Assembly: GCA_964504195.1 (NCBI GenBank)
Contig: CAZDDI010000003.1
Span: 83,380 to 147,379 of the forward strand
DNA length: 64,000 nt
Direction: 5' to 3'
DNA from: an uncultured Anaerolineales bacterium
Lineage (GTDB): Bacteria > Chloroflexota > Anaerolineae > B4-G1 > SLSP01
Position numbers and translations under genes: made by a program. This document shows, one piece after another, positions 5,724-60,166 of the stretch. The first letter of the stretch is position 1. The number at the start of each line of letters is the position of its first letter. The notes beneath the pieces were generated by a model that was not told where the DNA came from, searched no databases, and saw only the letters and a program-made list of their open reading frames with translations.

Positions 5724-6575
5724 ATGAAAAACTTCGCCGTGTTGCAACTTTCGGGCTGCGCGGGATGTGAAGTCTCGCTCCTCAACGCCGATGCCTGGAT
5801 CAAGGACTACCGCCTGCTCTACATGCCGCTGGTGGTCTCTGCCCATGATGTGCCGGATGTGGATGTGTTGCTCATCAGCGGCGGGGTGCGCACGGATGAA
5901 GACCTCTACAAATTGCGGCGGGCGATCCACCACGCGCAGCAGGTCGTCGCCGTCGGCACCTGCGCCATCTCCGGCGGCGTCGCCAACCTGGGCGACCGCG
6001 ATGAGGTGCGCGCGCTCTTCATGGCCCACGCTGAAGAGCATCACGACCTGCCGCGCCTGCTGCCGCGCTCCCATCCCATTGATGCCATCGTGGAGGTGGA
6101 TCGCTACCTGCCCGGCTGTCCGCCTACGCCGGAGCTCTTCATGGCCGTGCTCTCCGATCCCGATGCGTTTGTGGCCGGGCGCACCGTCTGCCACGAGTGC
6201 GGGCGCAAGAAGCTCAAAGATATGCGCCCGCAAAAATTGCTTGGCTTCCAGCAAGGCCATGTTGACCCGGACATCTGCCTCATCAATCAGGGCTATCTTT
6301 GCATCGGCTCCTCGACGCGGGGCGGTTGCCGCGCCCCCTGCACGCGCGCGGGTCACCCCTGCGTGGGTTGTCGCGGCCCTTCGGATGCGTTCATCGAGAA
6401 GGAATCCGAGGCCTGGTTCACCAGCATCCAGCGCGTCTTCGCCGCCATGACCGACGTGCCGGAGGAAGACCTCACCGCTGGGCTACGTTCTCCGCAAATG
6501 GCCCTGTTCCTCTTCCAGTTCTCCGATTACGCTGGCGGCGGGCGTCCCGCGCGCCTGAAAGAGAAGGTGCTGTGA
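5724..6575 (+). CDS. [NiFe]-hydrogenase small subunit (NuoB-like 20 kDa fold + Cys-rich FeS region), cytoplasmic
   Basis: MKNFAVLQLSGCAGCE...LPGCPPTPE is the hydrogenase small-subunit / NADH-dehydrogenase 20-kDa signature. A C-terminal region carries about 8 Cys. There is no twin-arginine signal. The stop overlaps the large-subunit start (TGATG). Confidence 0.8.
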   Translation: MKNFAVLQLSGCAGCEVSLLNADAWIKDYRLLYMPLVVSAHDVPDVDVLLISGGVRTDEDLYKLRRAIHHAQQVVAVGTCAISGGVANLGDRDEVRALFMAHAEEHHDLPRLLPRSHPIDAIVEVDRYLPGCPPTPELFMAVLSDPDAFVAGRTVCHECGRKKLKDMRPQKLLGFQQGHVDPDICLINQGYLCIGSSTRGGCRAPCTRAGHPCVGCRGPSDAFIEKESEAWFTSIQRVFAAMTDVPEEDLTAGLRSPQMALFLFQFSDYAGGGRPARLKEKVL

Positions 6576-7885
6576 TGACCACATTGACTTTTCCCCTCAG
6601 CCGTATCGAAGGCCACGCGCGCGTGGTGATCGAAGTGCGCGAAGGCGCGGTGCTGTCCGCTCATTTCCAGGCCACCGAGCTGCGCGGGTTCGAGTACCTC
6701 ATCAAAGGCGCACCGGCGGAGCAAATGCCGGTCATCGTGCCGCGGATCTGCGGCGTTTGTTCGACTGCGCATCACGTCGCCGCCGTCAAGGCGCTGGAAG
6801 ACGCCTACGGCATCGAGCCGCCGCCGCTGGCGTTGCAGATCCGCGAGCTGTTGATGCTGGGCCAGTTGATTCAGAACCAGGCCACGTCGCTGTTCATCTT
6901 CACCATGCCCGACCGGTTGGGCGTGGCGAGTCTCTTCCAGGTGGATGCGGCCAGCGAGGCTGAGGCCGCATCTGGTATAGCCGTGCGCGCGCTGCAAGTC
7001 CGCAAGGCCGGCACCGATCTCATCGGGGTGGCCGGCGGACAATTCATCCACCCGGTCAAGGCCGTGATCGGCGGAGTGACGAGCGGCATCACGCCGAGCG
7101 CCGCCGCCCAGATGCGTGAGCAGTTGCAAGCCGCGCTCCCTATCGCCTGCGAGCTCTTCGATTATTACTGGGAGACCTCGGTAGCGCTGGGCGAGCGGTT
7201 GGGCACCTGGGGCGATGACGAACCGGCTTGTTACATCTCCGCCGTCTCCGGGCTGCGCCCCAACTTCTACGGTGACGCTATCCGGCTGGTGGGGTGTGAG
7301 GGTGATTCGTGTGCGCTCTTCCCGGCGCGGCATTTCCGCGAATATCTGAGCTACGACGACACCGATTACAGCTACGCGGCCAAATCCAGCTACCAGGGCA
7401 ATGTTCTGCGGGCCAACAGCCTGGCGCGCATCAACATCGTTGAGCAGCTGGGGACGCCCTGCGCTGATCGTTACCTTAAACAATTCAAGGCGACATTTGG
7501 CTCGCCCGCCCACGCGATTCTGCTCTTCGACCTGGCGCGCGGCATCGAACTGGTCTACGCGCTGGAGCGGGCCATCGAGCTGCTGGCCGCGCCGTTGGAT
7601 GTAGGCCCGGAAGCCGTGCCGTACACCCCCCGCGACGGCGAGGGTTACGGGCTGGTCGAAGCCCCGCGTGGGCCGCTCATCCATCACTACCGTATCGAAA
7701 ACGGCCTGATAGCGCAAGCCGAATTCATCATCCCTACCGTGCATAACGTGCTCGCCATCGAGCGTGCGCTGCGTGTGGCGGCGAACCGCTACATCACGGC
7801 AGATAGCGTCAACCTGGAGCTGGAGCGCGCGGTCGGGCGCGTTGTGCGGGCCTTCGATCCGTGCATTGCCTGTGCGACACACTAG
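6575..7885 (+). CDS. [NiFe]-hydrogenase large subunit; terminates at the His of DPCIACATH (no cleavable C-terminal extension)
   Basis: The N-terminal motif is RICGVCSTAHH and the C-terminal motif is DPCIACATH*. The protein is 437 aa and translationally coupled to the small subunit. Confidence 0.85.
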   Translation: MTTLTFPLSRIEGHARVVIEVREGAVLSAHFQATELRGFEYLIKGAPAEQMPVIVPRICGVCSTAHHVAAVKALEDAYGIEPPPLALQIRELLMLGQLIQNQATSLFIFTMPDRLGVASLFQVDAASEAEAASGIAVRALQVRKAGTDLIGVAGGQFIHPVKAVIGGVTSGITPSAAAQMREQLQAALPIACELFDYYWETSVALGERLGTWGDDEPACYISAVSGLRPNFYGDAIRLVGCEGDSCALFPARHFREYLSYDDTDYSYAAKSSYQGNVLRANSLARINIVEQLGTPCADRYLKQFKATFGSPAHAILLFDLARGIELVYALERAIELLAAPLDVGPEAVPYTPRDGEGYGLVEAPRGPLIHHYRIENGLIAQAEFIIPTVHNVLAIERALRVAANRYITADSVNLELERAVGRVVRAFDPCIACATH

Positions 7886-8020
7886 TGTCCTGCGGTATGG
7901 CCGTTCCAAGAATTAAAACCGTTCACCTTGCTCGGCGTGGATTGTCAAATCCACGCCTCTGAGCTACACAGGGCCCGGGAATCGCTGGAGTTAGCAATCC
8001 AGCGAGAGCAGGATGCGCCG

Positions 8021-8053
8021 TTCGCGTGCCCGCGAAGCCGCCGCTTCGCGCTA
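8021..8053 (+). terminator. Hairpin CGCGAAGC-cgcc-GCTTCGCG followed by a T-rich tract
   Basis: This is a perfect 8-bp stem with the T-rich tract CTATATCTATTTTC displaced 3'. The same stem sequence recurs at 18005-18024. Confidence 0.25.
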
Positions 8054-8088
8054 TATCTATTTTCAAGGAAACAGGAAAGGAGGCGCGG

Positions 8089-11001
8089 ATGCGCTGTTCG
8101 CAATGCGGCCAAGAGTGGCCGGAGACCTACATAGGTTGCCCTGAATGTTTCATCCCCTTTAGCGTCACCGCTTCCGGCGAGCGGGGTATCGCTATTGGCG
8201 GCAACGCTCATAATAACACCTTCAACCTCGGCGATACTTATGTATCGCCCGATGCTCCACCCGAAGAACTGCTCCACGCCTATTACCGCTCACTGGCCGC
8301 AGAGTGCGCGCGGCTGCCGCTGGGCGTGGTGGATCCCAAATTCGCTGCGCCGGGCCGCGAGGGGGAAGTGAGCCTGCACCAGGTCTACGTGGGGCTGGAT
8401 GTGGTCGTCCCCGTGCGCGAGGAAACCGAAGACACCCATGCTTGGGGACTGCGCCTGGCGCGCGGCGAGGGCGAGGGCCGCATGCCGTTGCTTGAAGCTT
8501 TGGCTGCGCCCGCCGCGATGCGCGCTGTGCTCCTGGGCGATGCCGGTTCCGGCAAGACCACCTTCGTCAACTACCTGGTCTACCGGCTGGCTGCTGCCGC
8601 CAGCGCCGGGGATGTTCACGTCGAAGATCTGCCGGCGGCATTCCAGGGCTTGTGGCCCGTACGCCTGCTGCTGCGTGAGGTAGCAACTCACATGCCGGCC
8701 GCGGTCACTTGCGGCACCGCGACCATGTTGTGGGAGGCGCTCCAGGCAGATATAGCCAGCCGGTTGGGGGCGGTGGCGGCGGAACGCCTGCTGCCCTACA
8801 TGCAGGCGCGAGTGTTGCGACGCGGCGGTTTCTTACTGCTGGATGGCCTGGATGAAGTGCCCGAAGCCGGACGGCGGCGCAAGTGCCTGCTGGAAGCGTT
8901 GCAAGCCCTGGCGGATAGCCTGCCCGCCGGTGCGCGGGTGCTGCTCACCGCGCGCCCCTACGCCTACGCTGACCCCGCCTGGCAACTAGGTGATTTCCCC
9001 ATCCTGGCGCTGGCGCCCTTTGATGAAACGCAAGTGGAACGCTTTGTCGCCCGCTGGTATCAGGCAGTGCGCCCGGCGTTGGGGTGGGATGCGGCGGCCG
9101 CCGCGGCGCGGGGTGCGCAGTTGACCCAGGCCTTGCAGGAGCGGACATACCTGGCAGACCTGGCCTCGCGCCCGTTGCTCCTCACCTTGATGGCGACCCT
9201 GCACAGCAGTTGGGGGCAGCTGCCGGAGGATCGCGCTGATCTGTACGAGGAATCGGTCAAATTGCTGCTTTCACGCTGGCAGCGGGGCCGCCTGGTGCGC
9301 GAGGGACAGCAAATAGTGACCGAACCGGGCATCGCGGCGGCGTTGGGTTGGGGGGAAGCCCGCATTCGCGCGGCGTTGGAGAAACTGGCGTTTAACAGCC
9401 ACCAGCGGCAGGGCAGCGAGGCCGAGCGTGAGGATGCCCCCGCCGATATTCCCCAGGCGGCGGTGTTGGCGGCCTTTGCCGGCGTGCCTGAAAACGTCAA
9501 TCCGTGCGTGGTGCTCACCTATCTGGAACAACGCGCCGGGCTGCTCATGGGCCGCCGCGAAGAGGTCTATGTCTTTCCGCATCGCTCCTTTCAGGAATAC
9601 CTGGCGGCGTGTTACCTGAATGCCGACCCGGAATCGGCCGGCCGCTTGCGGAAACTGGTCTATGCCGACCCGGCCTGGTGGCGGGAGGTTTTCCTGCTGG
9701 GGGTGGGCAAGAAACGGCTGGGCAGTCTGGGCGATGCCGTGAATACCGTGAATACCCTCTTGCCGTGCGATGTAGAGAAATGCGCCCCGCCGCAACCGGC
9801 GGATTGGCGCGCGGCGGTGCTGGCCGGCAAAGCCGTGTTGGAATTGCGCTTGCGCGAGCGGGGCGCGGCGCAGGAGCATAGCGCGGTGTTGGTGGAGCGC
9901 GTGCGCGACTGGCTGGCGGCTCTGGTGACGGGTGGGCAGTTGCCGGCCCCAGAACGCGCCGAGGCCGGTGACGTGCTGGGCGCGCTGGGCGACCCGCGTC
10001 CGGGGGTGGGCGTAAGGGCGCACGGCCCGGTGGGGGCGCACGGCCGTGCGCCCTTACCCGATATTGTCTGGTGTGCCGTGCCCGCCGGGTCGTTCCTGAT
10101 GGGAAGTGTGGCGGATGAACCGGAGACCTATCCTGATGAAAAGCCCCAACATGCGGTGGACTTGCCCGCGTTCTATCTCAGCCGGTATTTGGTGACCAAC
10201 GCGCAGTTCCGGCCCTTTGTGGAGGGGGATGGCTACCGCAACCCGGCTTACTGGACGCCGGAAGGTTGGGCCTGGCGGCAGGGCGCGGAACCGGATTTGA
10301 CGCCATTGGAGGGTATGAGCGAAGATTGGCAACGTCAATATCGTGAATGGTTGGCCGGGCGCTCGCTTGAAAAGCGCGGTTGCCCGTTTTATTGGGAGCA
10401 CCCACAATTAAGTGTGCCTAATCGCCCGGTGGTGGGGATTACCTGGTACGAAGCGGCGGCGTATGGCCGGTGGCTGGAGGAACAGTTGCGAGTTACGGGT
10501 TCGGAGTTGCGCGTGTGGCAGGAGAATGAATGCACAATTCGCAACTTGAAACTCGGCACCTTCAACGTGCAACTGCCTAGCGAAGCGGAGTGGGAGAAGG
10601 CGGCGCGGGGTGAAGATGGCCGACGGTATCCCTGGGGCGGGGAGTGGCAGGAAGATTGCGCGAATACGGAAACCACCGAGTTGGGCCAGACCAGCGCCGT
10701 GGGGTTATTCCCGGCGGGGGTTAGTCCTTATGGATGCCTGGATCTGGTGGGCAATATGTGGGAGTGGACGCGGAGTCGTTGGGGGTGCAATGTGTTGCGC
10801 CCGGATTTTGGATATCCGTATACTGCTAATGATGGCCGTGAAGCTGAAAGTAGCGCTGCTGTGCCGGTGCTTCGCGGCGGCTCCTGGCTCAACAGTCAGT
10901 GGAGCGCCCGGTGCGCTTCCCGCAACAGGAACGTACCTGCCAACTTCATTGACGATGTCGGGTTTCGGGTGCTGTTGTCCCTGGGGGATGCTGATTTCTG
11001 A
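8089..11001 (+). CDS. STAND/NACHT-family NTPase with N-terminal zinc ribbon and C-terminal FGE-sulfatase (SUMF1/EgtB-like) domain
   Basis: The domains in order are:
- Zn ribbon: CSQCG...CPEC.
- Walker A: GDAGSGKTT.
- Walker B: LLLDGLDEV.
- NACHT winged-helix motif: FPHRSFQEYLAACYL.
- C-terminal FGE motifs: YLVTNAQF, GITWYEAAAY, LPSEAEWEKAARG, YPWGG, GNMWEWT, RGGSW, VGFRV.
A strong AAAGGAGG RBS precedes the ATG at 8089. Confidence 0.8.
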   Translation: MRCSQCGQEWPETYIGCPECFIPFSVTASGERGIAIGGNAHNNTFNLGDTYVSPDAPPEELLHAYYRSLAAECARLPLGVVDPKFAAPGREGEVSLHQVYVGLDVVVPVREETEDTHAWGLRLARGEGEGRMPLLEALAAPAAMRAVLLGDAGSGKTTFVNYLVYRLAAAASAGDVHVEDLPAAFQGLWPVRLLLREVATHMPAAVTCGTATMLWEALQADIASRLGAVAAERLLPYMQARVLRRGGFLLLDGLDEVPEAGRRRKCLLEALQALADSLPAGARVLLTARPYAYADPAWQLGDFPILALAPFDETQVERFVARWYQAVRPALGWDAAAAAARGAQLTQALQERTYLADLASRPLLLTLMATLHSSWGQLPEDRADLYEESVKLLLSRWQRGRLVREGQQIVTEPGIAAALGWGEARIRAALEKLAFNSHQRQGSEAEREDAPADIPQAAVLAAFAGVPENVNPCVVLTYLEQRAGLLMGRREEVYVFPHRSFQEYLAACYLNADPESAGRLRKLVYADPAWWREVFLLGVGKKRLGSLGDAVNTVNTLLPCDVEKCAPPQPADWRAAVLAGKAVLELRLRERGAAQEHSAVLVERVRDWLAALVTGGQLPAPERAEAGDVLGALGDPRPGVGVRAHGPVGAHGRAPLPDIVWCAVPAGSFLMGSVADEPETYPDEKPQHAVDLPAFYLSRYLVTNAQFRPFVEGDGYRNPAYWTPEGWAWRQGAEPDLTPLEGMSEDWQRQYREWLAGRSLEKRGCPFYWEHPQLSVPNRPVVGITWYEAAAYGRWLEEQLRVTGSELRVWQENECTIRNLKLGTFNVQLPSEAEWEKAARGEDGRRYPWGGEWQEDCANTETTELGQTSAVGLFPAGVSPYGCLDLVGNMWEWTRSRWGCNVLRPDFGYPYTANDGREAESSAAVPVLRGGSWLNSQWSARCASRNRNVPANFIDDVGFRVLLSLGDADF

Positions 11002-11170
11002 TTTCTGGTTGCTGTGATTTCTGGATCTCTGAATCCTGGGGGGATTCCAAAGGGGGCGCGCCCCCTTTGGCCGCCGCGTAGCGGCGGAGCTCGCGGCAAT
11101 TGTGCTGGTTGCTGGAAGCTGGCTGCTTGAAACTTGAGGCTTGCTGCTTGTGACTTGCCGCTTTCTCGCC
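10996..11170. repeat. Two period-7 degenerate tandem arrays (TGATTTC units; GCTKGNN units) in the NACHT-partner intergenic region
   Basis: The first array is TGATTTC TGATTTC TGGTTGC TGTGATTTC. The second is GCTGGTT GCTGGAA GCTGGCT GCTTGAA ACTTGAG GCTTGCT GCTTGTG ACTTGCC GCTTTCT. Confidence 0.6.
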
Positions 11171-11193
11171 TAATCATTTTACGGAGGCTACTT

Positions 11194-11916
11194 ATGAAAA
11201 CTCAAGAACAGGAAATCGTGACGGTATTGGCGGAGCTCGTCCCGGATGGGGGAACGGCGCTGGCGCGGCGGGTGGGGCCGCAGGCGTTGGCCCACGCCCA
11301 GGCCATTCAGGGCGAAATCGTGCCCTGGCTGGAGGCCAATGAGTTGACGGCGCGGGCCTGGCAAGCCTTTCAACAATCGCCTCAGGCGCAGAAGCCAAAG
11401 TTGCTCACCGTTGTGCAACTCATTCTGGACGATGATGTGGATCTGGCGGCGCGGCTGGACGCGCTGTTGCGGGCCTATCAGCAGGCGCAGCCCGCCGGCA
11501 AGCAGGAGACGCGCACCGTGACCGCTTCCGGCGAGCGCAGCGTCGCCATCGGCGGGAATGCCCGCGGCAACACCTTCAATACAGGCGACCAGATCCAGAC
11601 CCTCCAACCCGGCCTGGATGCGGATGCTGTGACCCGGCTCTTCGCGCAGGCGTTGGACTTGGCCCGGCAACAGCCCGTGGAACTCCGCGAAGACGTGGCG
11701 GCAGCCGTGGAAACGGCGCAAGAAGAGGTTGCGGCTGGGCCAGATGCCGACAAAGCTTTGCTGAATAAGATGCTCGACGTGTTGCTTGATAAGGCCCCAG
11801 ACGTGCTGGAACTGGTCGTTGAGGCCATCCTCAACCCGGCTGCCGCAGTGGGCAAGGGCGCCAAACTGCTGGCGAAACAAGCGCGCGAGAGCTTGCAAAA
11901 GCAACGCTCCGCGTAA
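11194..11916 (+). CDS. Hypothetical alpha-helical protein sharing a 23-aa motif with the upstream NACHT protein
   Basis: The start is MKTQEQEIV after an ACGGAGG RBS. Its internal VTASGERSVAIGGNARGNTFNTGD motif matches VTASGERGIAIGGNAHNNTFNLGD in the NACHT protein. The DNA is also conserved (17/17 nt, ACCGCTTCCGGCGAGCG). The rest of the protein is predicted helical and Ala/Leu/Gln-rich. Confidence 0.6.
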   Translation: MKTQEQEIVTVLAELVPDGGTALARRVGPQALAHAQAIQGEIVPWLEANELTARAWQAFQQSPQAQKPKLLTVVQLILDDDVDLAARLDALLRAYQQAQPAGKQETRTVTASGERSVAIGGNARGNTFNTGDQIQTLQPGLDADAVTRLFAQALDLARQQPVELREDVAAAVETAQEEVAAGPDADKALLNKMLDVLLDKAPDVLELVVEAILNPAAAVGKGAKLLAKQARESLQKQRSA

Positions 11917-12310: not shown

Positions 12311-12341
12311 ACGGCGTCCTTTTCAGGACGCCGTTTTTTGT
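12311..12341 (+). terminator. Intrinsic terminator (expression-platform candidate) ACGGCGTCC-TTTTCA-GGACGCCGT + T6
   Basis: This is a perfect 9-bp stem followed by TTTTTT, about 95 nt upstream of the SBP start codon. Confidence 0.55.
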
Positions 12342-12436: not shown

Positions 12437-13990
12437 ATGTCGAAAATATGGAAACAACTGTGGATAGGGCTGTTATTGGTGGTGATATTGGCGAGCTGTG
12501 CGCCCACGCCGACCACGGCGCCGCCCGAACCCTCACCTGCCACGCTCAGCCCGGCGACCCCAGAGACGCCCGCTGCAACTTTGCAAGTAAGTGGCGCGAT
12601 GGCCTCAGAACGCGCCTTTACGACGGAAGACCTCACGGCGCTGGGACTGCAAGAGTCCTTGTATACCAACCGTGATGGAGAATCTACGACCTATACGGGC
12701 GTCTCCATAGCTCTCTTGCTAAACACTGTGACGCCAGCCGCCGACGCTACCACCCTGGTCTTAGTGGCTAGTGATGGTTATGAGGCGCAAGTCCCGCTCG
12801 CTGATGCACTGGTCTGTGCGGAGTGCATTGTGGCATTTGAAGCGGATGGTAGCTTCCGCGCCGTATTGCCGGACTTCCCCGGTAATGTCCAGGTGCGCGA
12901 TTTGGTCGCGCTCCAGGTGCTGAGCGCTGCCGAAGCTCAACCCGAACCGCCCCCCACTTCCGAGGACACCATTCCCAATGATGGGCCGGTGACGATTACC
13001 GATGCTGCCGGGCGCACCGTGAGTCTGGAACAACTCCCGCGGCGCATTGTGGTCGTCGGGCGCGGCCCGTTTATGGCCCTCCATCTACTCTACATGTTCC
13101 CTGAAGGCCGTACCCGGTTGGTCGGGGCAGAAAGTCGCAGCGCCACCCCTAGCGATTTTCTACCTTACGTCCAACCGGATTTTCTGGAGCGCATCGTGGG
13201 CATGGCCGCCAATCCCAACGCGGAACAGATTGCTACGCTTGAGCCAGATTTGGTGATAATCAAGAGTGTCGCATTGGAGCAAATAGGCGAGTCCCTGGCG
13301 CAGGTCAACATTCCGGTCGTGTACCTGGGGCTGGAAACACCGGAGCAATTCTTCCAGGATGTGACCAATCTGGGGGCGTTGTTGGGCAATCCCACCCGCG
13401 CGCAGGGGATCATCGCTTTCTATCAAGCGCGCCTGGAGCGCATCGAAGCCGGCGTCGCGGATATTCCTGAGAACGAACGCCCGCGCGTGTTGCTGTTGGA
13501 GCATTCTGACCGGAGCGGGGAAGTTGCAGGCCGGGTGCCTCCGTTGGTGTGGATGCAGACCATTCAAGTCGAGGCCGCCGGCGGCGTCCCGGTGTGGCGC
13601 GAGGCTGTGCAAGTGACGGATGGCTGGACGGTGGTGAATTTCGAACAGATTGCCGCCTGGGATCCGGATAAAATTTTCATGGTGATCTCATACCAGCTCG
13701 ATCCCCAAGAGGTGATAGATGGTTTCAAAGCGGATCCGCAATGGCGTGCTCTGAGCGCGGTGCAAAATGAAGAGCTATACGCCTTCCCCGGAGACATCTT
13801 CGGCTGGGACACCCCCGAAGCCCGGTGGTTGCTCGGCGTGAACTGGTTAGCCACCCGTCTGCACCCCGAGGTTTTTGCGGATTTAGACCTCGAAACGGAG
13901 ATTTACACCTTTTTTGGCGAACTCTATGACATGGAACGGGATGTGATAGATTCTGCTATCTTGTCCCAAGTGTATCTGGATGTCCATTAG
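12437..13990 (+). CDS. ABC transporter periplasmic substrate-binding lipoprotein, FecB/BtuF (class III SBP) family, with extra N-terminal domain
   Basis: It has a signal peptide plus lipobox (LLLVVILASCAP). The C-terminal half (RIVVVGRGPFM...EPDLVIIKS...) matches iron-siderophore/cobalamin binding proteins. The roughly 200-aa N-terminal domain is of unknown function. Confidence 0.7.
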   Translation: MSKIWKQLWIGLLLVVILASCAPTPTTAPPEPSPATLSPATPETPAATLQVSGAMASERAFTTEDLTALGLQESLYTNRDGESTTYTGVSIALLLNTVTPAADATTLVLVASDGYEAQVPLADALVCAECIVAFEADGSFRAVLPDFPGNVQVRDLVALQVLSAAEAQPEPPPTSEDTIPNDGPVTITDAAGRTVSLEQLPRRIVVVGRGPFMALHLLYMFPEGRTRLVGAESRSATPSDFLPYVQPDFLERIVGMAANPNAEQIATLEPDLVIIKSVALEQIGESLAQVNIPVVYLGLETPEQFFQDVTNLGALLGNPTRAQGIIAFYQARLERIEAGVADIPENERPRVLLLEHSDRSGEVAGRVPPLVWMQTIQVEAAGGVPVWREAVQVTDGWTVVNFEQIAAWDPDKIFMVISYQLDPQEVIDGFKADPQWRALSAVQNEELYAFPGDIFGWDTPEARWLLGVNWLATRLHPEVFADLDLETEIYTFFGELYDMERDVIDSAILSQVYLDVH

Positions 13991-15005
13991 GGCGCAAGCA
14001 GCCGCCGCGCGTTCCCGGCGTTTCCGGCGGCAATTATGGAGTCTGGCAGGGTTGCTATTGCTGACCATTTTGCTCTCGCTGCTTCTGGGCCGCTATCCCG
14101 GCCCATACTTTACGCCCCTGGCGACCTTGCGCGAGAATGCGTTAGCACGCACCGTGGTGCTGAACTTGCGCCTCCCGCGCATTTTGGCCGCCGTTTTTCT
14201 GGGAGCGACGCTGGCCGCTGCCGGCACGACCTTTCAGCTCATCTTCCGCAATCCGCTGGTGGATGCTGGCTTTTTAGGGGTTTCACAAGGCGCGGCCTTT
14301 GGCGCTTCCCTGGCGATTGTTTTTCTGGGCGGCACGGCTGCGGCGGTGCAGGGGAGCGCGGCAGCCTTTGCTTTTGTGGGGCTTGCCGCTAGCTACCTGA
14401 TGGCGCAGCGCTTGCGCTTGGGAGATTGGGTGCTCCGTTTGGTCATGGCGGGAATTGGAGTCTCCGCCTTCTATGCTGCCGGCACCGGGGTGATCAAATA
14501 TCTGGCCGATCCCTTAAAGCAACTGCCAGACATCACCTTTTGGTTGTTGGGCGGCTTGTGGGCTATCACCTGGCGCGATATCCTGCATATCTTGCCCGTC
14601 GTGGCGCCGGCGCTCATCATCATCTACTTGATGCGCTGGCGGCTGAATTTACTCGCGCTTCAGGATACTACGGCTTTTGCGTTAGGGGCAGTGCCGGGGC
14701 GGGAACGGCTGGTCATGCTGATAGCCGCGACGGCTGCGACCGCCGCGGTGGTCTCCAAAGCCGGGCAAATCGGTTGGGTGGGCCTGATTGTACCCCATAT
14801 CGCCCGCCGGGTGCTCGGCGCGGATGCGCAATTGACCGTACCTGGCGGGATGTTCATCGGCGCGTTGTTTGTGCTGGGTTGTGATAATCTGGCGCGCACG
14901 GTGCTCTCCGGTGAAATCCCGTTGGGCATCCTCACCTCACTCATTGGCGCATTGGTTTTCTTTAGCTTGCTGTTGCGCAATGACCTGGAGCTGAAAAAAC
15001 GATGA
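13980..15005 (+). CDS. ABC transporter permease, FecCD/BtuC family
   Basis: About 9 TM helices with a typical FecCD fold. It overlaps the upstream SBP gene. Confidence 0.8.
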   Translation: MSIRAQAAAARSRRFRRQLWSLAGLLLLTILLSLLLGRYPGPYFTPLATLRENALARTVVLNLRLPRILAAVFLGATLAAAGTTFQLIFRNPLVDAGFLGVSQGAAFGASLAIVFLGGTAAAVQGSAAAFAFVGLAASYLMAQRLRLGDWVLRLVMAGIGVSAFYAAGTGVIKYLADPLKQLPDITFWLLGGLWAITWRDILHILPVVAPALIIIYLMRWRLNLLALQDTTAFALGAVPGRERLVMLIAATAATAAVVSKAGQIGWVGLIVPHIARRVLGADAQLTVPGGMFIGALFVLGCDNLARTVLSGEIPLGILTSLIGALVFFSLLLRNDLELKKR

Positions 15006-15778
15006 CCCCCGCAGTATCACTCACAGACCTGGCTTTTCGCTATACTCCGACCGCGCCCGATGTGGTGCAAAACATCACCCTGGACTTGCCCTCACGCGCA
15101 GTGACAGCAATTTTAGGCCCTAATGGTTCAGGAAAAACCACGTTGCTGCATCTCATCTTGGGGCTGCTCACGCCACAGCAGGGGCGCATCGCGTTGAATG
15201 GTACACAGCACACCGGCTACGCGCGTCGGGAGGTCAGTCATATTCTGGGATTGGTACCCCAAGAAGAACCGCCAGCGTTCAACTTGAATGTGCTGGAAAC
15301 GGTGCTGTTAGGCCGCGCCCCCTATCTCAAACTGCTCCAGCGGCCCAGCGAACGTGATTACACGACCGCTTTTCGCTCATTAGAGCAGGTCGGCATCGCG
15401 GATTTATGGGCGCGCCCGGTGCCCGCGTTGAGCGGCGGCGAACGACAGTTAGCCGTGTTAGCCCGCGCCTTGACGCAAGAACCGGACATTCTGTTGTTGG
15501 ATGAACCGACTTCACATCTGGACGTGAACAACGCGCGCCAGATTTTAAGCCTCATGCGTGACTTACGAACGCAAGGCAAAACCATTGTCTTTACCACACA
15601 TGATCCTAATGCGGCTGCCGCTACGGCGGATTATGTGGTGCTGATGCGTCAGGGCCGGGTGTTGTATGCCGGCACCGCCCACGAAACTTTGACCGGAGAA
15701 CATCTGAGCGCCACCTATGATGTGCCCATTGAAGTGGTGCGCGATCATCTGGGCCGTTTATTGGTGGTAGTCTATTAA
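15002..15778 (+). CDS. ABC transporter ATP-binding protein (FecE/BtuD-like)
   Basis: Walker A GPNGSGKTTLL, signature LSGGERQ, and Walker B LLLDEPTSHLD. There is a 4-nt overlap with the permease. Confidence 0.85.
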   Translation: MTPAVSLTDLAFRYTPTAPDVVQNITLDLPSRAVTAILGPNGSGKTTLLHLILGLLTPQQGRIALNGTQHTGYARREVSHILGLVPQEEPPAFNLNVLETVLLGRAPYLKLLQRPSERDYTTAFRSLEQVGIADLWARPVPALSGGERQLAVLARALTQEPDILLLDEPTSHLDVNNARQILSLMRDLRTQGKTIVFTTHDPNAAAATADYVVLMRQGRVLYAGTAHETLTGEHLSATYDVPIEVVRDHLGRLLVVVY

Positions 15779-16643: not shown

Positions 16644-17567
16644 CCTGACCTATCACGAAGCGGTGACGTTGTTTGAACAGTGGGGCTTGCAAGTAGCACC
16701 GGGTCCCCGCGCGGGCGAAGTAACCCTGATGTTAGTTGCAGAGGATGCACATACTTATGCCGCCCACCCGCAATACTGCTTACCGCAGATGGCCGCAGTG
16801 ATTTGGGCCGCGCGCTGGCAGAATGGAAGCATCGGTTGTGGGCGGGTTGCCATGTCGGGCATACAGTGTGGTTAATGCGGAAGGAGAGTTACAGCTCAGC
16901 ACAAAAAAACTATTCTGGTTCTATCAAATACCCAATCTACCGATAGCTCTTTTGCGGTGGATTAAAAGACTGTAAAAGTATAATTTCCCGTTATAGCCGT
17001 GTTTTAACGGTAAAATTCGGGAACTTATAAATTTACGAACTTTAAGATGAATGGCCCACAGACATTTCTGGTGACCTAGTGGCGCGGTAAATCATAGTGC
17101 AATTACGCGCTGCGCTGGCATAACAAGCCATGACTTTTTTTGAAGTTGCAACATTAAACTTCATGTTGATTTGTTCTGATGAGGTGTTTTTTGGCAGCCG
17201 CGCTTTCCATAAGCGCGGCTGCTAACGCATTTGAAACATACCCACAACAAATTGGTTTAATGGTTATTAAATTACACCTCTCACATACGAAAAGTGTATT
17301 ATGACATTAGTGTAGTGTATGACGATAGGCTATAATAAACAGAATTTTAACATCTTTTAGTACTTATTGGCGTGGCTAGATCTACCGGCGGATTTCGCCA
17401 TTCCCTGCGCGGTTCCGTCATGGCTCTACCACACCAACAGTAACGCAAATGCGGGTAACTGGCGTCCCTCTCAGAGTCAGCTGCTCAGAGTGGATCCTTA
17501 GATCCACGACCGGTCAAATTTTTAGATTTGCCACTCGTTATTTGTTGTTTTAGGAGGGCCTTAATCC

Positions 17568-17930
17568 ATGAAGAGCTTAGAAGAATTGCGGAAGATAAAA
17601 GAACGGGCGTTGGAGCGGCGACAGCTGGCAGGGGCGGGGGCGCGCGCGCGGGTGACGGTGGCGATGGGCACGTGCGGTATCGCGGCGGGCGCGCGGGACA
17701 CCATGACGGCCATCCTCAACGAGATGGAGAAGCGCCAGCTGACCGATGTGGTGGTCACGCAGACCGGGTGCATGGGCCTGTGCGAGTACGAGCCGCTGGT
17801 GCAGATCCAGGTGGGTGAGGAAGAAGTGGTCACTTACGGCAAAATTGATCCCTCTCGCGTCCCCGACCTCATCGAGGCGCACCTGGTCAAGGGCGAACCG
17901 GTTGCAGCGTGGCAGGTACAGACGCAATAA
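17568..17930 (+). CDS. Small thioredoxin-like [2Fe-2S] ferredoxin-domain protein (HndB/NuoE-N-like), copy 1
   Basis: 120 aa with MGTCGI...TGCMGLCEYEP. A GGAGGG RBS is present. It is 97% identical to 28701-29063. Confidence 0.7.
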   Translation: MKSLEELRKIKERALERRQLAGAGARARVTVAMGTCGIAAGARDTMTAILNEMEKRQLTDVVVTQTGCMGLCEYEPLVQIQVGEEEVVTYGKIDPSRVPDLIEAHLVKGEPVAAWQVQTQ

Positions 17931-18069
17931 GCCCGCGTTTCCATGTGCCATTGGCATACCAACGCTGACGAAAATGTAATGCGAACTATTAGTTCGCAAC
18001 CACGCGAAGCAGACGCTTCGCGCTACGTCAGGCTTGATTTGTGATTTGCAGATTTTTTGAGGAGGTAGT

Positions 18070-19842
18070 ATGGTTTACCGCGCACATGTCTTGATCTGCG
18101 GGGAACCCCGTTGTGTTGAAAAGGGCGCGCGGGATGTTGAGGCGGCGCTGACCCAAAAAATACAGGAGCTGGGCCTGGAAAACGAGGTCCAAATTCTGGA
18201 AGCCAGCGCGCTAGGGCATGGCGAACAAGGCCCGGAACTGGTGGTCTACCCCGAAGGCGTCCATTACGTCAACCTGCGCCCGGAAGACGCCACGCGCATT
18301 GTTGAAGAGCATCTGTTCAAGGGACGCCCCATCGCGGAATTGCAGTACAAAGAACCGCCTTCGGAGCCGCTGCCCGCGCCATCCCACAAAGAAATCCGCG
18401 TGGTGCTGGATAAAATCGGCAAAATTGATCCCGAAAATATTGATGATTACATCGCGCTGGATGGCTATGCCGCGCTGGCGAAAGTGCTGGGCGGGATGTC
18501 CCGCGACGAGGTGCTGGTCGTGCTCAAAACGTCCGGGCTGCGCGGGCGCGGCGGGGCGGGCTTCCCTACCCACCTCAAGTGGAGTTTCGCCAAGAACGCG
18601 CCCGGCGATGTGAAATACGTCATCTGTAACGCTGATGAGGGCGACCCCGGCGCGTTCATGAACCGGCGCGTGCTCGAAGGCGACCCGCACGCCGTCATCG
18701 AAGGTATGGCGATTGCGGCGTATGTCATCGGCGCGCGGCAGGGCTATATCTATGTTCGCGCCGAGTACCCCATCGCCATCAGCACTTTGCGCGTGGCATT
18801 GGCACAGGCCCGCGAGTATGGTCTGCTGGGGGAAAACATCCTCGACACTCATTTTAGTTTCGATCTGGAAATCCGCATGGGCGCGGGGGCCTTCGTCTGT
18901 GGCGAAGAGACCGCGCTGATGAAATCCATCGAAGGCGTGCGGGGGATGCCGACCACCCGCCCGCCCTTCCCGGCCACGTCGGGCCTGTGGGGCAAGCCCT
19001 CCAACATCAACAACGTAGAGACCTACGCCAACGTGCCGCAGATTTTGCTCAAGGGCGGCGCGTGGTTTGCCTCGATGGGCACGGAGAAGAGCAAGGGCAC
19101 CAAGACCTTTGCGGTGGCCGGAAAAGTGGCGCGCACTGGCTTGATCGAAGTGCCGCTGGGCATCACCATTCGCGAAATCGTCTACGATGTGGGCGGCGGT
19201 GTGCTCGATGGCAAGAAGTTCAAGGCCGTGCAGACCGGCGGCCCGATGGGCGGTTGTATCCCAGAGAAGTATCTTGACCTGCCGGTGGATTACGAAAACC
19301 TGGCGGCCGTCGGCTCGATCATGGGTTCGGGCGGCTTCGTCGTGATGGATGAAGAAACCTGTATGGTGGATATCGCTCGCTTCTTCATGGAGTTCACGCA
19401 GGAAGAATCGTGCGGTAAATGTGTGCCGTGCCGCGTGGGCACCCGGCGGATGTTGGAGATTCTCGAACATATCTGCGCGGGCAAGGGCAAGCCCGGTGAT
19501 ATCGAGATGCTGGAAACCCTGGCCGAGAAGATCGGTTTTGGCTCGTTGTGCGGGCTGGGTCAGGGAGCGCCAAATCCGGTGCTCAGCACGCTAGAGCACT
19601 TCCGTGACGAGTACGAGGCACACATCTACGAGAAGCGCTGCCCGGCGAAGGTCTGCAAGGCCCTGATCGAGTACCGCATCGAGGCCGAGACCTGTATCGG
19701 CTGCACACGCTGCGCTCGTAACTGCCCGGTCAACGCCATTAGCGGCAAGGCCAAACAGGTGCATGTGATTGATCCTGAGACCTGCATCCGCTGCGGTATC
19801 TGCGCGCAGGTTTGTCCGGTAGACGCCGTGAAAGTTGAGTGA
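18070..19842 (+). CDS. NuoF-like NAD(P)H-binding flavoprotein subunit (HoxF/HndC/HydB-type) with N-terminal Trx-like domain and C-terminal 2x[4Fe-4S] ferredoxin domain, copy 1
   Basis: The motifs are GRGGAGFPTHLKWSF (NADH/FMN site) and ESCGKCVPCRVG ([4Fe-4S] N3). The C-terminal CIGCTRCARNCP and CIRCGICAQVCP are two ferredoxin motifs. Confidence 0.85.
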   Translation: MVYRAHVLICGEPRCVEKGARDVEAALTQKIQELGLENEVQILEASALGHGEQGPELVVYPEGVHYVNLRPEDATRIVEEHLFKGRPIAELQYKEPPSEPLPAPSHKEIRVVLDKIGKIDPENIDDYIALDGYAALAKVLGGMSRDEVLVVLKTSGLRGRGGAGFPTHLKWSFAKNAPGDVKYVICNADEGDPGAFMNRRVLEGDPHAVIEGMAIAAYVIGARQGYIYVRAEYPIAISTLRVALAQAREYGLLGENILDTHFSFDLEIRMGAGAFVCGEETALMKSIEGVRGMPTTRPPFPATSGLWGKPSNINNVETYANVPQILLKGGAWFASMGTEKSKGTKTFAVAGKVARTGLIEVPLGITIREIVYDVGGGVLDGKKFKAVQTGGPMGGCIPEKYLDLPVDYENLAAVGSIMGSGGFVVMDEETCMVDIARFFMEFTQEESCGKCVPCRVGTRRMLEILEHICAGKGKPGDIEMLETLAEKIGFGSLCGLGQGAPNPVLSTLEHFRDEYEAHIYEKRCPAKVCKALIEYRIEAETCIGCTRCARNCPVNAISGKAKQVHVIDPETCIRCGICAQVCPVDAVKVE

Positions 19843-20343: not shown

Positions 20344-21920
20344 TACGCGCGCATGTGTTGATTTCCGGGGATGCGCTGAGCCTCTCGCGCGGCGCAGAGG
20401 AAACCCGGCTTGCCATCGAGGCAGAGCTCTCGTTTCTGGGGCTAGATAAGGAAGTGCTGGTGAGCTACACTAGCCAGGTAGAGCGCACGGATGAGTTGCC
20501 GATGGTGATGGTCTTCCCAGAGGGGATCCGGTATGGCTCAGTTCATCCGGAGGACGGTGCGTACATTGTCCAGGAGCATCTCTACAAAGGGCGTATTGTT
20601 GAACATTTGCGGTTGCCTCCGGAAATACTCTCTGGTCACATTGTACATATACCTGGCAAACTTGGCGCGCTCTACGCGCAGAAGCGCGTGGTCTTGCGCC
20701 GTGCCGGTCTGATTGATCCCACTAGTATTGAAGACTACATCGCCCACGACGGCTACTTTGCGCTGGGCAAAGCCCTCACCGAGATGCAATCGGCTGACGT
20801 GCTGCAAGCGGTAAAAGATTCCGGCTTGCAAGGTCGCGGCGGCGCGGGTTTCCCCACCGGCTTGAAATGGAGCTTCGCAGTGAACCAGCCGGGCGAGAAG
20901 TACATCGTCTGCAACGCGGATGAATCCGAGCCGGGCACGTTCAAGGATCGCCTGATCCTGGAGGGCGACCCGCACGCCGTGTTGGAAGGCATGGCCCTCG
21001 CCGGGTATGCCTGTGGCGCGGCGCAGGGCTGGATTTACATTCGCGGTGAGTATGTGCAGGCGCGCGAACGGCTCGAGCACGCCATCAAGCAGGCGGAAGA
21101 GTACGGGCTGCTGGGCGACAACATCATGGAGACCGGGTTCTCCTTCCACATCCATGTCCACGCGGGCGCGGGCGCGTATGTCTGCGGTGAGGAAACGGCT
21201 CTGCTGGAAAGCCTCGAAGGCAAACGCGGCACGCCGCGCATCCGTCCGCCGTATCCCACAGTGCGCGGTTTTCGCGATCAACCGACGCTGGTCAACAACG
21301 TGGAGACGCTAGCGAATGTGCCGGCCATTATCCTCAACGGGTCGGACTGGTTCCGCTCCATTGGGACGCACACCAGCCCTGGCACCAAGGTCTATACCAT
21401 GCTGGGCGATGTCAACATCACCGGTTTGATCGAAGTGCCGATGGGCATCACTCTCCGCGAAGTCATCGAAATCTACGGCGGCGGCGTGAAGAACGGCAAG
21501 GCCTTCAAGTGCGCGCAGACGGGCGGCGCTTCCGGCAGCATCATCCCGGCAGCGTTGCTGGATGTGCCGATGGATTTTGCTTCGATGCAGGCGCAGGGCG
21601 CGTCCCTGGGCAGCGGTGCGCTTCTGGTGTGTGACGAGGATACCGATGTGGTAGACCTGGCTTATGTGCTGGTGCGCTTCTTTGCAACTGAATCGTGCGG
21701 CAAGTGTGTGCCCTGCCGGGTGGGGTCAGCGCAAATGTTGGAGGCGCTGGAACGGCTGCGCAAGGGCTATGCCAAACCTGCCGATTTGCAGCGGCTTGAA
21801 GAGATTGCCACCCATGTTCAGGAAACCTCATTCTGCGGCCTGGGGCAGGCCGCGCCAGTGCCGATTCTTACCGGGCTACGCTTCTTCCGCGCCGAGTTCG
21901 AGGCCCGCGTACAAGCCTAG
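20340..21920 (+). CDS. Second NuoF-like flavoprotein subunit (no C-terminal ferredoxin domains; degenerate Cys-less N-terminal Trx-like domain)
   Basis: GRGGAGFPTGLKWSF and ESCGKCVPCRVG motifs. ATGA overlap with the upstream gene. Confidence 0.85.
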   Translation: MIRAHVLISGDALSLSRGAEETRLAIEAELSFLGLDKEVLVSYTSQVERTDELPMVMVFPEGIRYGSVHPEDGAYIVQEHLYKGRIVEHLRLPPEILSGHIVHIPGKLGALYAQKRVVLRRAGLIDPTSIEDYIAHDGYFALGKALTEMQSADVLQAVKDSGLQGRGGAGFPTGLKWSFAVNQPGEKYIVCNADESEPGTFKDRLILEGDPHAVLEGMALAGYACGAAQGWIYIRGEYVQARERLEHAIKQAEEYGLLGDNIMETGFSFHIHVHAGAGAYVCGEETALLESLEGKRGTPRIRPPYPTVRGFRDQPTLVNNVETLANVPAIILNGSDWFRSIGTHTSPGTKVYTMLGDVNITGLIEVPMGITLREVIEIYGGGVKNGKAFKCAQTGGASGSIIPAALLDVPMDFASMQAQGASLGSGALLVCDEDTDVVDLAYVLVRFFATESCGKCVPCRVGSAQMLEALERLRKGYAKPADLQRLEEIATHVQETSFCGLGQAAPVPILTGLRFFRAEFEARVQA

Positions 21921-28068: not shown

Positions 28069-28700
28069 AGTAGAACTGCCTCGTGCAAGTCCCCCGCGCC
28101 CCCGTGAAAAACACAGGAGCGCGCTTTTTTGCCCCCCACGCTCTTCGCGTATCATGCTTGCTCAATCCCTCAAGGTGGATGTCTTAACGACATCATTCAA
28201 GTTGCCACCCGCACTTTTGACCACAGTCGGCTGACAACGGACGACCTTTGGAATGTAAAACGTGGTCTGTCATCACTGGTCGGTGGTCTACGTCTAGAAA
28301 GTAACAATTTGGTTTAACATATCCACACTCGGTCATTCAAAACGGAATTTGGCAAGGCATTGGTATGACCTTTGCAAGGTTTAACTGTATCGGTGGAATA
28401 ATGTCACTATGCCGTTAGGTGAGATTGCGGTATAATGAACGGTGGTATTTTGTAAGCGGGAAAGCAGGTATTGGAAATGAAGCGAGACGACATCTTGCAC
28501 GCCTTAGCTCAATTTCAAGAGCTAACCCAGGTCGAATTTGGCATCACGCACAGTCGAGATTTTTAGCCACGAATCACACGAATTTTACGAACTTAGCTGA
28601 TGTTTTCGCGTTAATTTGTGAAATTCGTGGCAAATTCTGGAAAATGTCGGTAGTGAATTCGTAACTTGTCATTTGTAATCTTACAGGAGGAACTTAGTCC

Positions 28701-29063
28701 ATGAAGAGCTTAGAAGAACTACGGAAGATCAAAGAACGGGCGTTGGAGCGTCGGCAGCTGGCCGGGGCGGGGGCGCGCGCACGGGTGACGGTGGCGATGG
28801 GCACGTGCGGTATCGCTGCGGGCGCGCGGGACACCATGACGGCCATCCTCAATGAGATGGAGAAGCGTCAACTCAGCGATGTGGTGGTCACACAGACCGG
28901 ATGCATGGGCCTGTGCGAGTATGAGCCGCTGGTGCAGATCCAGGTAGGTGAGGAAGAAGTGGTCACTTACGGCAAAATTGATCCCTCTCGCGTTCCCGAA
29001 CTCATCGAGGCGCACCTGGTCAAGGGCGAACCGGTTGCAGCGTGGCAGGTGCAAACTGCCTAG
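28701..29063 (+). CDS. Small thioredoxin-like [2Fe-2S] ferredoxin-domain protein, copy 2
   Basis: 117/120 aa identical to 17568-17930. Confidence 0.7.
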   Translation: MKSLEELRKIKERALERRQLAGAGARARVTVAMGTCGIAAGARDTMTAILNEMEKRQLSDVVVTQTGCMGLCEYEPLVQIQVGEEEVVTYGKIDPSRVPELIEAHLVKGEPVAAWQVQTA

Positions 29064-29202
29064 AGCGCAGGGCGCGCGTGAGCATTCATCCGGTACAGCC
29101 CTGATGATGGGAATAGCAGCCTGAGAGCGAACTAAAGTTCGCGTTATGTTTGCTACATTGATTTGTGATCCGCTGATTTGCAGATTTTCTTGAGGAGGTA
29201 TT

Positions 29203-59707: not shown

Positions 59708-59848
59708 CAGTTATTATGCCAGCATTTGTGATTTTGACAAGACATATCATCATATCTCTAAAGGGATTCTATTTCTATTGTTGACTTTACTGGAACTACT
59801 TTGAATTAGAGCAGGCAGCAACTTGCGTTGTGATATCTTGTGCTAAAA

Positions 59849-59995
59849 CGTAAGGAAATCGTAAGGAAGCCGTCAAGTAAAGGCTCCTCCCGTTTGTTAT
59901 AATATAGTCAGTATTGAGAACGGGGCCGCGATGAGATTCTCCTCCTTCTGCGAAACCGGGGGCTTTTGAAAGCCCCCGGTTTTACGTTGTCTACG
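59849..59995 (+). ncRNA. Candidate small-RNA gene unit A (direct repeats CGTAAGGAA x2, -10 TATAAT, CU-rich anti-SD-like core, intrinsic terminator)
   Basis: The elements in order are: ACGTAAGGAAATCGTAAGGAAGCCGTCAAG ... TTGTTATAATAT ... GGGGCCGC..TTCTCCTCCTTCTG ... AACCGGGGGCT-TTTGAA-AGCCCCCGGTT + TTTAC. It is repeated in tandem at 60009-60152. Confidence 0.4.
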
Positions 59996-60008
59996 TTTGT
60001 TCCATAGA

Positions 60009-60152: not shown

Positions 60153-60166
60153 CCTTTCCGCGCCGC

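Follow-up and report, generated by a model that had tools for sequence, protein, structure and literature searches.

A NACHT-FGS receptor gene and its helical partner in an Anaerolineales bacterium share a BASS6-type peptide and form a candidate amyloid signalling pair

Two adjacent collinear genes in a 64,000-nucleotide stretch of contig CAZDDI010000003.1 from an uncultured Anaerolineales bacterium (hereafter the window) encode a 970-residue receptor of the nucleotide-binding oligomerisation domain-like (NLR) type and a 240-residue helical partner, and both proteins carry a closely similar 24-residue peptide. The peptide matches BASS6, a published family of bacterial amyloid signalling sequences (BASS), and the two genes probably form a pair of NLR and effector in which an amyloid signalling motif of BASS6 type provides the coupling. 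The receptor, a nucleoside triphosphatase (NTPase), comprises in order a zinc ribbon, the BASS6 motif, a NACHT domain, a helical spacer and an FGS domain of C-type lectin fold. The partner comprises a Bell-like helical domain, a flexible linker bearing the motif and a TCAD2-like helical domain (Table 1). NACHT-FGS receptors, BASS6, Bell-like domains and TCAD2 are all known parts; what appears to be new is their combination and, in the partner family, a cassette of several motifs.

A shared peptide assigned to the BASS6 family

The peptide had been noticed in a first-pass annotation of this DNA, where its identity was given as 20 of 23 residues. The peptide is real, and the measured identity is 19 of 24 (NTPase residues 26–49 and partner residues 109–132). 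At the DNA level 52 of 72 nucleotides agree, including the exact 17-nt run reported earlier. With the partner as query, phmmer retrieved the NTPase at E 3.2e-7 among the 651 open reading frames (ORFs) of the loci fetched for comparison, and the match is far beyond chance. No third copy of the peptide was found in the window.

Ten of the 24 codons are identical, nine differ synonymously and five non-synonymously, and the peptide is therefore held by selection rather than by recent DNA exchange. The first-pass annotation had offered recent exchange and strong constraint as alternatives; with nine of the 19 conserved codons differing synonymously, recent gene conversion or exchange is not supported, and constraint stands. 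In composition the peptide is rich in G, N, V and I and contains no K, P or L. A match of the motif to YadA_head (E 0.08 and 0.013) was rejected as compositional likeness to beta-roll repeats, not homology.

AlphaFold2 models place both copies between confident folds. The NTPase model (68 homologues) has a mean predicted local distance difference test score (pLDDT) of 86.9 and a predicted template modelling score of 0.83, and is confident from residue 50 on, while residues 21–49, motif included, fall below a pLDDT of 50. The partner model (mean pLDDT 84.7) shows two confident helical domains, residues 1–100 and 143–240, joined by a linker in which residues 103–110 and 114–141 fall below 50. 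Since the motif lies in such low-scoring segments in both models, it is predicted to be exposed and flexible in both proteins.

For the family assignment we relied solely on published instances. The supplementary data of Dyrka et al. 2021 (PMC8086366) provide Bell-side training sequences for ten BASS families, of which cluster C09 is BASS6 according to the authors' README; C09 strings include LQRDERAVTASGERSVAIGGDNSGVVSTGDD as well as AGVNVIASGNRSVAIGGNVSGSTIITGDQNQ and LGERSVAIGGDVTGSVIVTGD from Chloroflexus and Roseiflexus. A hidden Markov model (HMM) made from 82 of the C09 fragments was run against 849 six-frame segments of the window. The partner ranked first (31.4 bits, E 5.7e-9) and the NTPase N-terminus second (12.5 bits, E 0.0046), with the next segment at E 0.021. 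Against the 651 ORFs of the fetched loci, the HMM matched motif-bearing partners and NLRs only. On this profile evidence, the shared peptide is assigned to the BASS6 family of bacterial amyloid signalling motifs.

An exhaustive search of 1.84 billion cluster representatives with a motif profile returned 755 proteins with E ≤ 1e-3, of which 100 had E ≤ 1e-10. This search was used in place of a word-indexed protein search with the motif-only alignment, which gave no more than 12 short fragments and failed to recover known carriers. Proteins of greater length that bear the motif also contain caspase/CHAT, trypsin-nSTAND1, DUF4062, AAA_35 or pentapeptide domains. The first-pass annotation had named presence in unrelated proteins genome-wide as a ground for refutation. 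Taken literally this applies, the motif being present in at least 755 representatives and not private to the pair; these are mostly small Bell-like proteins, however, and the outcome speaks for a coupling function and not against it. At one further locus (L022), a 151-aa Bell-type protein has at its C-terminus the same peptide as the window partner (ETRTVTASGERSVAIGGN...), ending ETRTVTASGERSVAIGGNVSGSTISTGD; its gene overlaps that of a downstream P-loop NLR, whose product starts with MTENSKSAEASGPRSVAVGGDVSGNIHTGD, matching the motif. This is the canonical Bell/NLR arrangement.

At another locus (L021, 6001–6177), a 58-aa ORF ending in a BASS6 motif lies between the gene of a 1718-aa DEAD/Helicase_C/MZB protein and two protein-kinase-like genes, and AbiEii adjoins. 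None of the called neighbours there has an N-terminal BASS6 motif.

Architecture of the receptor NTPase

Both ORFs, the NACHT domain and the C-terminal domain of the formylglycine-generating enzyme (FGE) type are as first annotated, with Pfam scores of 46.0 bits for NACHT (PF05729, cut-off 26.7) and 181.3 bits for FGS (PF03781, E 3.5e-53, cut-off 23.3). The start methionine is the same in the orthologues, and several metagenome contigs carry identical called NTPase and partner genes. The protein contains GDAGSGKTT, DGLDEV and FPHRSFQEYLAA; across 68 homologues G150, G153, G155, K156, D252, G253, L254, D255 and E256 are invariant. The layout is tripartite, with zinc ribbon and motif in residues 1–49, NACHT and helical domains from 147 to about 640, and FGS in 663–962. 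Its profile match, intact Walker A and B motifs and tripartite layout place the protein in the NACHT clade of the STAND (signal transduction ATPases with numerous domains), or NLR-like, NTPases.

The N-terminal zinc ribbon of the first-pass annotation is visible as a CxxC...CxxC pattern, but its Pfam support is sub-threshold (DZR, E 0.08). It is conserved in the orthologues P0189–P0192 and also at loci L005 and L017, and is modelled with a pLDDT of about 70. Among solved structures, relatives of the FGS domain are EgtB, OvsA, ToxD, CalU17 and FGE (E 1e-25 to 1e-17), and the non-FGE members ToxD and CalU17 are the closest relatives of its C-terminal half. In NCBIfam, equivalog scores are far under their cut-offs, and the sole match was a weak partial one to EruA (25 bits, cut-off 1000). 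The FGS domain is presumed to be a ligand sensor.

Joining NACHT to an FGE-sulfatase domain had been taken for unusual. It is not: at least 1274 proteins match at E ≤ 1e-20, and the architecture is described in PMC8195603 and PMC10907252. The best 120 all share it; 44 of them have the core GxF[VIT][GA]RD of a second motif (module B below) upstream of Walker A, and the BASS6 HMM gives scores of 10 bits or more for 17. Shuffling of N-terminal modules is visible among these NLRs, and the subfamily with zinc ribbon and BASS6 is small (four orthologues, 77–80% identity).

The helical partner

The partner family was compared by hhalign with 40 small BASS6-bearing proteins of the Bell type, a set that includes P0060, which has a 24-residue string in common with the published Bell-side sequence A0A1U7GWN1. 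The two families matched with a probability of 99.1% (E 8e-19); once the motif columns were taken out, a match over 90 columns persisted (95.1%, E 3.3e-8). The N-domain of the partner is thus homologous to the Bell-type domain independently of the motif, and it is modelled with a pLDDT above 90.

The C-terminal domain of the window partner scores 16.8 bits at full length and 20.1 bits as an isolated domain against TCAD2 (PF19971, cut-off 27). Two aligned homologues exceed the cut-off, P0012 with 60.7 bits and P0027 with 31.0 bits, and the domain is accordingly best described as a putative TCAD2 family member. Pfam, PADLOC and fold searches detected neither a membrane-disrupting nor an enzymatic signature in the partner domains, in agreement with the earlier description of a protein without enzymatic motif.

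Motif sharing at related loci

Of the 32 partner homologues found, ten distinct loci, the window among them, have usable flanks; a 10-sequence partner alignment had led to just two genome and four metagenome loci. Partner homologues adjoin one to three NACHT-FGS genes at nine of these ten loci. Across loci the partner linker combines up to three short modules as a cassette: A, ETRTVTASGERSVAIGG..G.TFN.GD; B, I[ND]TGGGAYVGG.V...GGDFVGRD; and C, ITGDGNVIG.....TV. As far as the neighbours on the contig were searched (Table 2), all partner motifs recur on an adjacent protein at nine of the ten loci; at L017 only A was matched before the contig ends.

Table 2. Motif modules on partners and on neighbouring proteins at ten loci.
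Locus	Partner modules	Neighbouring proteins
Window	A	Sole NLR: zinc ribbon + A
L005	A + B + C	NLR with zinc ribbon + A; NLR with B; neighbours not searched for C
L017	A + B + C	NLR with zinc ribbon + A; contig ends after next gene
L013	B + C	B-type motifs on two NLRs, with a C-like stretch after the first; no A
L015	B	One NLR with B
L019	B + C	NLR with B; NLR with C-like motif
L010, L011	B + C	One NLR with B; neighbour not searched for C
L004	A + B	NLR with fused Bell-like domain + A + B; two further NLRs with B
L009	B + C	242-aa non-NLR protein, motif B at start

Motif sharing between an NLR and the adjacent collinear gene is kept in the orthologous pairs of L005, L017 and L004. At L004 a NACHT-FGS protein begins with a fused Bell-like domain and the motifs, an 'all-in-one' form, and the copies of motif A agree at 22 of 24 positions within the locus, against 12–16 between loci. 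At L009 the gene of a 242-aa non-NLR protein (6373–7101) comes after the partner gene and overlaps it by 8 nt, and its product has motif B at the N-terminus (TEGGAYVADDVDTGGGDFIGRD); the motif-sharing rule therefore extends beyond NLRs.

Motif B (TGGGAYVGG...GDFVGRD) was also considered as BASS2. A rough profile from 29 published sequences did not detect it, and GxF[VI]GRD is present in some BASS2 entries; motif B is best left as an unclassified BASS-like motif. Proteins with EAD7, patatin or bDLD1 domains are encoded nearby at some related loci.

Several further observations were made at these loci. The orthologous NLRs of L005 and L017 adjoin integrase or transposase genes, and L017 also has BREX (PglZ, BrxL) and AbiEii genes. 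At L005 (8900–9781), L006 (1992–2891) and L017 (10900–11781), what follows the partner is a gene for a helical N-domain ending at a P-loop (NACHT profile positions 1–20), and in all three independent assemblies the contig stops about 95–155 nt past that P-loop, which suggests a third NLR broken by an assembly-disrupting repeat or insertion element. At L008, tandem direct repeats (10212–10483, about 90% identical) lie directly 5' of a NACHT-FGS gene, and the remaining partner-like match is partial (query residues 134–205), possibly a degraded partner gene.

Proposed mechanism and alternative explanations

The first-pass annotation proposed a co-assembly site between the NTPase and its neighbour, a two-component pair and an FGE-like sensor. 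These ideas gain comparative support from the adjacency at nine of ten loci, the recurrence of the motifs and the BASS6 match. Taking as a starting point the architecture, homologies, flexible motif context, peptide selection, adjacency and motif recurrence, which the analysis shows, and borrowing the dynamic steps from fungal and bacterial precedents, we propose the following sequence. The FGS domain would bind a ligand, presumably from a phage or other invader, and binding would release NTP-dependent oligomerisation of the NACHT domain, as in the workings of STAND proteins and NLRs. Oligomerisation would gather the flexible N-terminal tails, each with one BASS6 motif behind its zinc ribbon, and the clustered motifs could take up a cross-beta fold. 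Such a nucleus may then template the near-identical motif in the partner linker, whereupon the Bell-like and TCAD2 domains would turn active, probably as oligomers and possibly at the membrane, and the cell would be killed or arrested.

The scheme has precedents. Fibril and prion assays for BASS1 and BASS3 underpin the BASS paradigm (bioRxiv 10.1101/2020.01.06.895854), and in the antiphage defence of E. coli, amyloid signalling, with transmission of the activation signal by such motifs, has been proved experimentally (bioRxiv 10.1101/2024.11.07.622273).

A number of points weigh against an amyloid-coupled pair. Cross-beta fibril formation by this motif would follow by analogy; in its abstract, the first BASS paper names only BASS1 and BASS3 as tested (bioRxiv 10.1101/2020.01.06.895854). 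The NLR-side copy reaches just 12.5 bits, with an HMM dominated by actinobacterial sequences, and motif A co-varies clearly within the pair in L004 alone, not in the window or L005. The partner also departs from canonical Bell proteins, which have a hydrophobic first helix, fewer than 200 residues and a C-terminal motif: its first helix QEQEIVTVLAELVP is acidic and amphipathic rather than of the conserved Bell LAPFLPYL type, and its motif is internal, with TCAD2 as a second domain after it. Fold searches gave generic helical bundles only, with no HeLo, MLKL or Bab-like match, and neither protein matches any PADLOC family at E ≤ 0.01. Finally, the NLR gene precedes the partner gene at a distance of 192 nt, whereas 57% of published collinear pairs lie ≤ 10 bp apart.

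Some of these features would sit well with a non-amyloid docking peptide, in which the two copies, or one copy and a globular domain, pair stoichiometrically as a beta-hairpin or by strand augmentation and hold the partner on the NLR in the manner of a globular effector-associated domain (EAD), with no templated polymerisation. The zinc ribbon before the NLR motif and the internal position of the partner motif are atypical for amyloid signalling motifs, the AlphaFold2 model of the NLR tail contains a short low-confidence beta-hairpin (E35–39, E42–46), and a docking contact fits the 'EAD principle', with one module on the NTPase and another on its neighbours (PMC8195603). We nevertheless consider docking without amyloid unlikely. 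Its sequence puts the peptide in a family that was defined as amyloid signalling sequences, and its composition is as reported for BASS and beta-solenoids. The likeness to EADs that was drawn in the first-pass annotation also fails, the module being a short flexible motif and not a globular domain; no EAD (EAD1–EAD11) or bacterial Death-like profile of Pfam matches the NTPase or the partner.

It is improbable, in our estimate, that the partner is instead a negative regulator or hub adaptor, whose cassette silences the N-terminal motifs of the NLRs or routes them to an effector elsewhere. Up to three partner motifs, recurring on up to three neighbouring NLRs, would suit such a role, as would the lack of a detectable membrane-disrupting or enzymatic signature and the EAD7, patatin or bDLD1 proteins near some loci. 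The N-domain, however, is homologous to Bell-type domains, which are execution domains in the literature, and no other candidate effector flanks the window pair, with hydrogenase genes upstream and a riboswitch-controlled ATP-binding cassette (ABC) transporter downstream.

Least probable is a peptide that serves as a passive glycine-rich linker left by domain shuffling, or as a protease or modification site, with no role in contact between NLR and partner: the region is predicted disordered, such motifs are widespread (755 representatives) and the N-terminal NLR modules are shuffled, but synonymous change is nearly saturated and the peptide sequence has nonetheless been kept, the HMM of the published family is specific, the presence or absence of partner motifs tracks the neighbours, and the loci have no conserved protease or modifying enzyme in common.

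Retroelement-diversified relatives and a possible multi-motif hub

Some relatives of the window pair are associated with diversity-generating retroelements (DGRs). Loci L004, L013 and L019 have RVT_1 and bAvd genes, and template repeats matching the 3' ends of NLR genes were found there and at L008. The differences between template and variable repeats fall almost only at template adenines (9/10, 13/14, 13/14 and 21/21; three loci compared). By these sequence hallmarks, the elements of L004, L013 and L019 are canonical DGRs.

The 3' end of the window gene retains a segment homologous to such variable repeats (Table 1). In a gapless alignment with the template repeat of L013, 87 of 108 positions are identical and 10 of the 21 mismatches fall at template adenines; against this non-cognate template, 40% of adenine sites and 13% of other sites are mismatched. 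A repeat search, tblastn and Pfam found no cognate template repeat, reverse transcriptase or Avd in the 64 kb of the window, and any DGR serving the window gene would lie elsewhere in the genome.

STAND-FGS systems with N-terminal EADs and DGRs have been described (Kaur et al. 2021, PMC8195603), and DGR-diversified STAND-lectin proteins have been discussed as 'antigen sensors' with mostly uncharacterised N-terminal extensions (Dore et al. 2024, PMC10907252). Neither of the two papers links STAND-FGS or lectin systems to amyloid signalling motifs. Conversely, the BASS paper of Dyrka et al. leaves FGE/sulfatase domains unmentioned and limits Bell candidates to < 200 aa. Bacterial NLR/Bell amyloid signalling and the retroelement-diversified NACHT-lectin receptors of multicellular bacteria have been separate research lines. 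The window locus and its relatives suggest that both belong to one pathway, in which a variable lectin senses, the NACHT domain switches and a BASS-type motif signals to a helical partner.

A more tentative extension, which we hold to be possible though short of probable, is a multi-motif hub. The partner linker would carry one motif per NACHT-FGS paralogue, and several DGR-diversified lectin-type receptors would converge by prion-like templating on one Bell-like/TCAD2 executioner. If true, this would be the first link of targeted receptor hypermutation with bacterial amyloid signalling, and it would explain the 'uncharacterised N-terminal extensions' of DGR-diversified STAND targets. If the proposed coupling is confirmed, the N-termini of a very large receptor family, so far uncharacterised, would have a function assigned, and amyloid signalling and the role of TCAD2 could be studied in a compact, retroelement-free two-gene system.

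Relation to known systems

The closest counterparts are the Bell/NLR BASS6 pairs (Dyrka et al. 2020, bioRxiv 10.1101/2020.01.06.895854; PMC8086366). As there, adjacent collinear genes of a filamentous Chloroflexota lineage (closest named relatives Anaerolineae) place a G/N/V/I-rich motif of about 24 residues, with a BASS6 profile match, on the N-terminal region of a NACHT protein and on a small helical protein, here with a Bell-homologous N-domain. The window pair differs in its sensor, an FGS domain of C-type lectin fold where the published pairs have TPR or WD repeats, and in the zinc ribbon that precedes the NLR motif. Its 240-aa partner exceeds the 200-aa limit of the published screen and has TCAD2 after an internal motif; the NLR gene comes first, with a 192-nt spacer, and the partners of its relatives carry a cassette of several different motifs.

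With the STAND NTPase-FGS conflict systems (PMC8195603, PMC10907252), the window gene shares the joining of NACHT to a C-terminal FGE-sulfatase domain and the variable-repeat-homologous 3' end. Several paralogues per locus, RVT_1, bAvd, a template repeat and adenine-specific differences are found at its relatives; the window itself has no reverse transcriptase, Avd or template repeat. The coupling module is a short BASS-type motif in place of a globular EAD or Death-like domain.

The Bab/Agp system of E. coli, an antiphage abortive infection system with a BASS11 motif (Ibarlosa et al. 2024, bioRxiv 10.1101/2024.11.07.622273), likewise consists of two adjacent genes with a short amyloid motif common to both, one encoding a Bell-related executioner that is small and helical, the other a large sensor protein. 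The motif family is another, and Bab has 109 aa, a C-terminal motif and no second domain. In fungal NWD2/HET-S and related NLR/HeLo pairs, a motif at the N-terminus of the NLR acts as template for the same motif in a neighbouring helical execution protein, as we propose for the window, and 'all-in-one' fusions of execution domain and NLR occur, as at L004. These pairs belong to another kingdom and their motif is unrelated in sequence; on the fungal effector the motif sits at the C-terminus, often as a pseudo-repeat of a single motif, whereas the window family has a cassette of different ones. The ternary NTP-dependent conflict systems (TCAD2, PF19971; Kaur et al. 2020, PMC7159879) resemble the pair in the TCAD2 match of the partner family and in having FGS domains among their components, and differ in that genes for MoxR, vWA or VMAP are absent from the vicinity of the pair, both in the window and at the related loci examined.

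Features and genomic surroundings of the window

The features of the pair are collected in Table 1. The palindrome in the spacer between the two genes has no T run after it and gave no terminator call.

Table 1. Features of the receptor and partner genes (window coordinates).
Feature	Position	Strand	Basis
NLR-type gene, 970 aa	8089..11001	+	ORF (ATG 8089, stop 11001); Pfam domains; AlphaFold2
Four-cysteine zinc ribbon, residues 1–22, C3-x2-C6...C17-x2-C20	8089..8154	+	Sequence MRCSQCGQEWPETYIGCPEC
NLR-side BASS6-type motif VTASGERGIAIGGNAHNNTFNLGD, residues 26–49	8164..8235	+	19/24 with partner copy; BASS6 HMM
NACHT NTPase, residues 147–325, Walker A GDAGSGKT, Walker B LLLDGLDE	8527..9063	+	Pfam PF05729
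FGE-sulfatase/FGS domain (C-type lectin fold), residues 663–962	10075..10974	+	Pfam PF03781
Segment with homology to variable repeats (DGR) in related NACHT-FGS genes (RGGSWLNSQWSARCASRNRNVPANFIDDVGFRVLLS)	10873..10980	+	Gapless alignment with L013 template repeat
Perfect 24-nt GC-rich palindrome CCAAAGGGGGCGCGCCCCCTTTGG, inside the 192-nt NLR-partner spacer	11047..11070	.	Sequence
Shine-Dalgarno GGAGG, six bases 5' of partner ATG	11183..11187	+	Sequence
Partner gene, 240 aa	11194..11916	+	ORF (ATG 11194, stop 11916); 32 homologues; AlphaFold2
Bell-like N-terminal helical domain, residues 1–100	11194..11493	+	hhalign; AlphaFold2
Partner-side BASS6-type motif VTASGERSVAIGGNARGNTFNTGD, residues 109–132	11518..11589	+	Top BASS6 HMM match; low-confidence linker
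TCAD2-like C-terminal helical domain, residues 143–240	11620..11913	+	Pfam PF19971

In the NLR gene, G+C reaches 66.5% (8001–10000), against 57–64% in the flanking hydrogenase and transporter genes. Together with the mobile-element, BREX and AbiEii neighbours of the orthologues, this shift fits a mobile defence island.

A molybdenum cofactor (Moco) riboswitch (RF01055, 12132–12250, + strand, 63.8 bits, E 5e-13), together with the terminator-like hairpin and its T run that come after it (12311–12334), accounts for the long non-coding stretch 3' of the partner gene. Downstream of the riboswitch lies the ABC transporter operon (12437–15778; Peripla_BP_2, FecCD, ABC_tran).

Elsewhere in the window, clusters of the NuoF-like/Complex1_51K type are duplicated as paralogues (17552–19839 and 28685–30972; also 20664–21194 and 31796–32329). 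The duplicates are 83–93% identical over 300-nt blocks and amount to four related copies near hydrogenase and formate-dehydrogenase-like genes. Two ORFs on the minus strand, of 575 aa (45082–46806) and 904 aa (47363–50074), have no Pfam match at E ≤ 1e-5 and have in common a 317-nt repeat of 82% identity (45122–45438 and 47439–47755). Upstream of an ORF at 60428, two tandem units of about 160 nt (59844–60157) each consist of a 68-nt segment and a 61-nt segment with a GC-rich hairpin (CCGGGGGC...GCCCCCGG).

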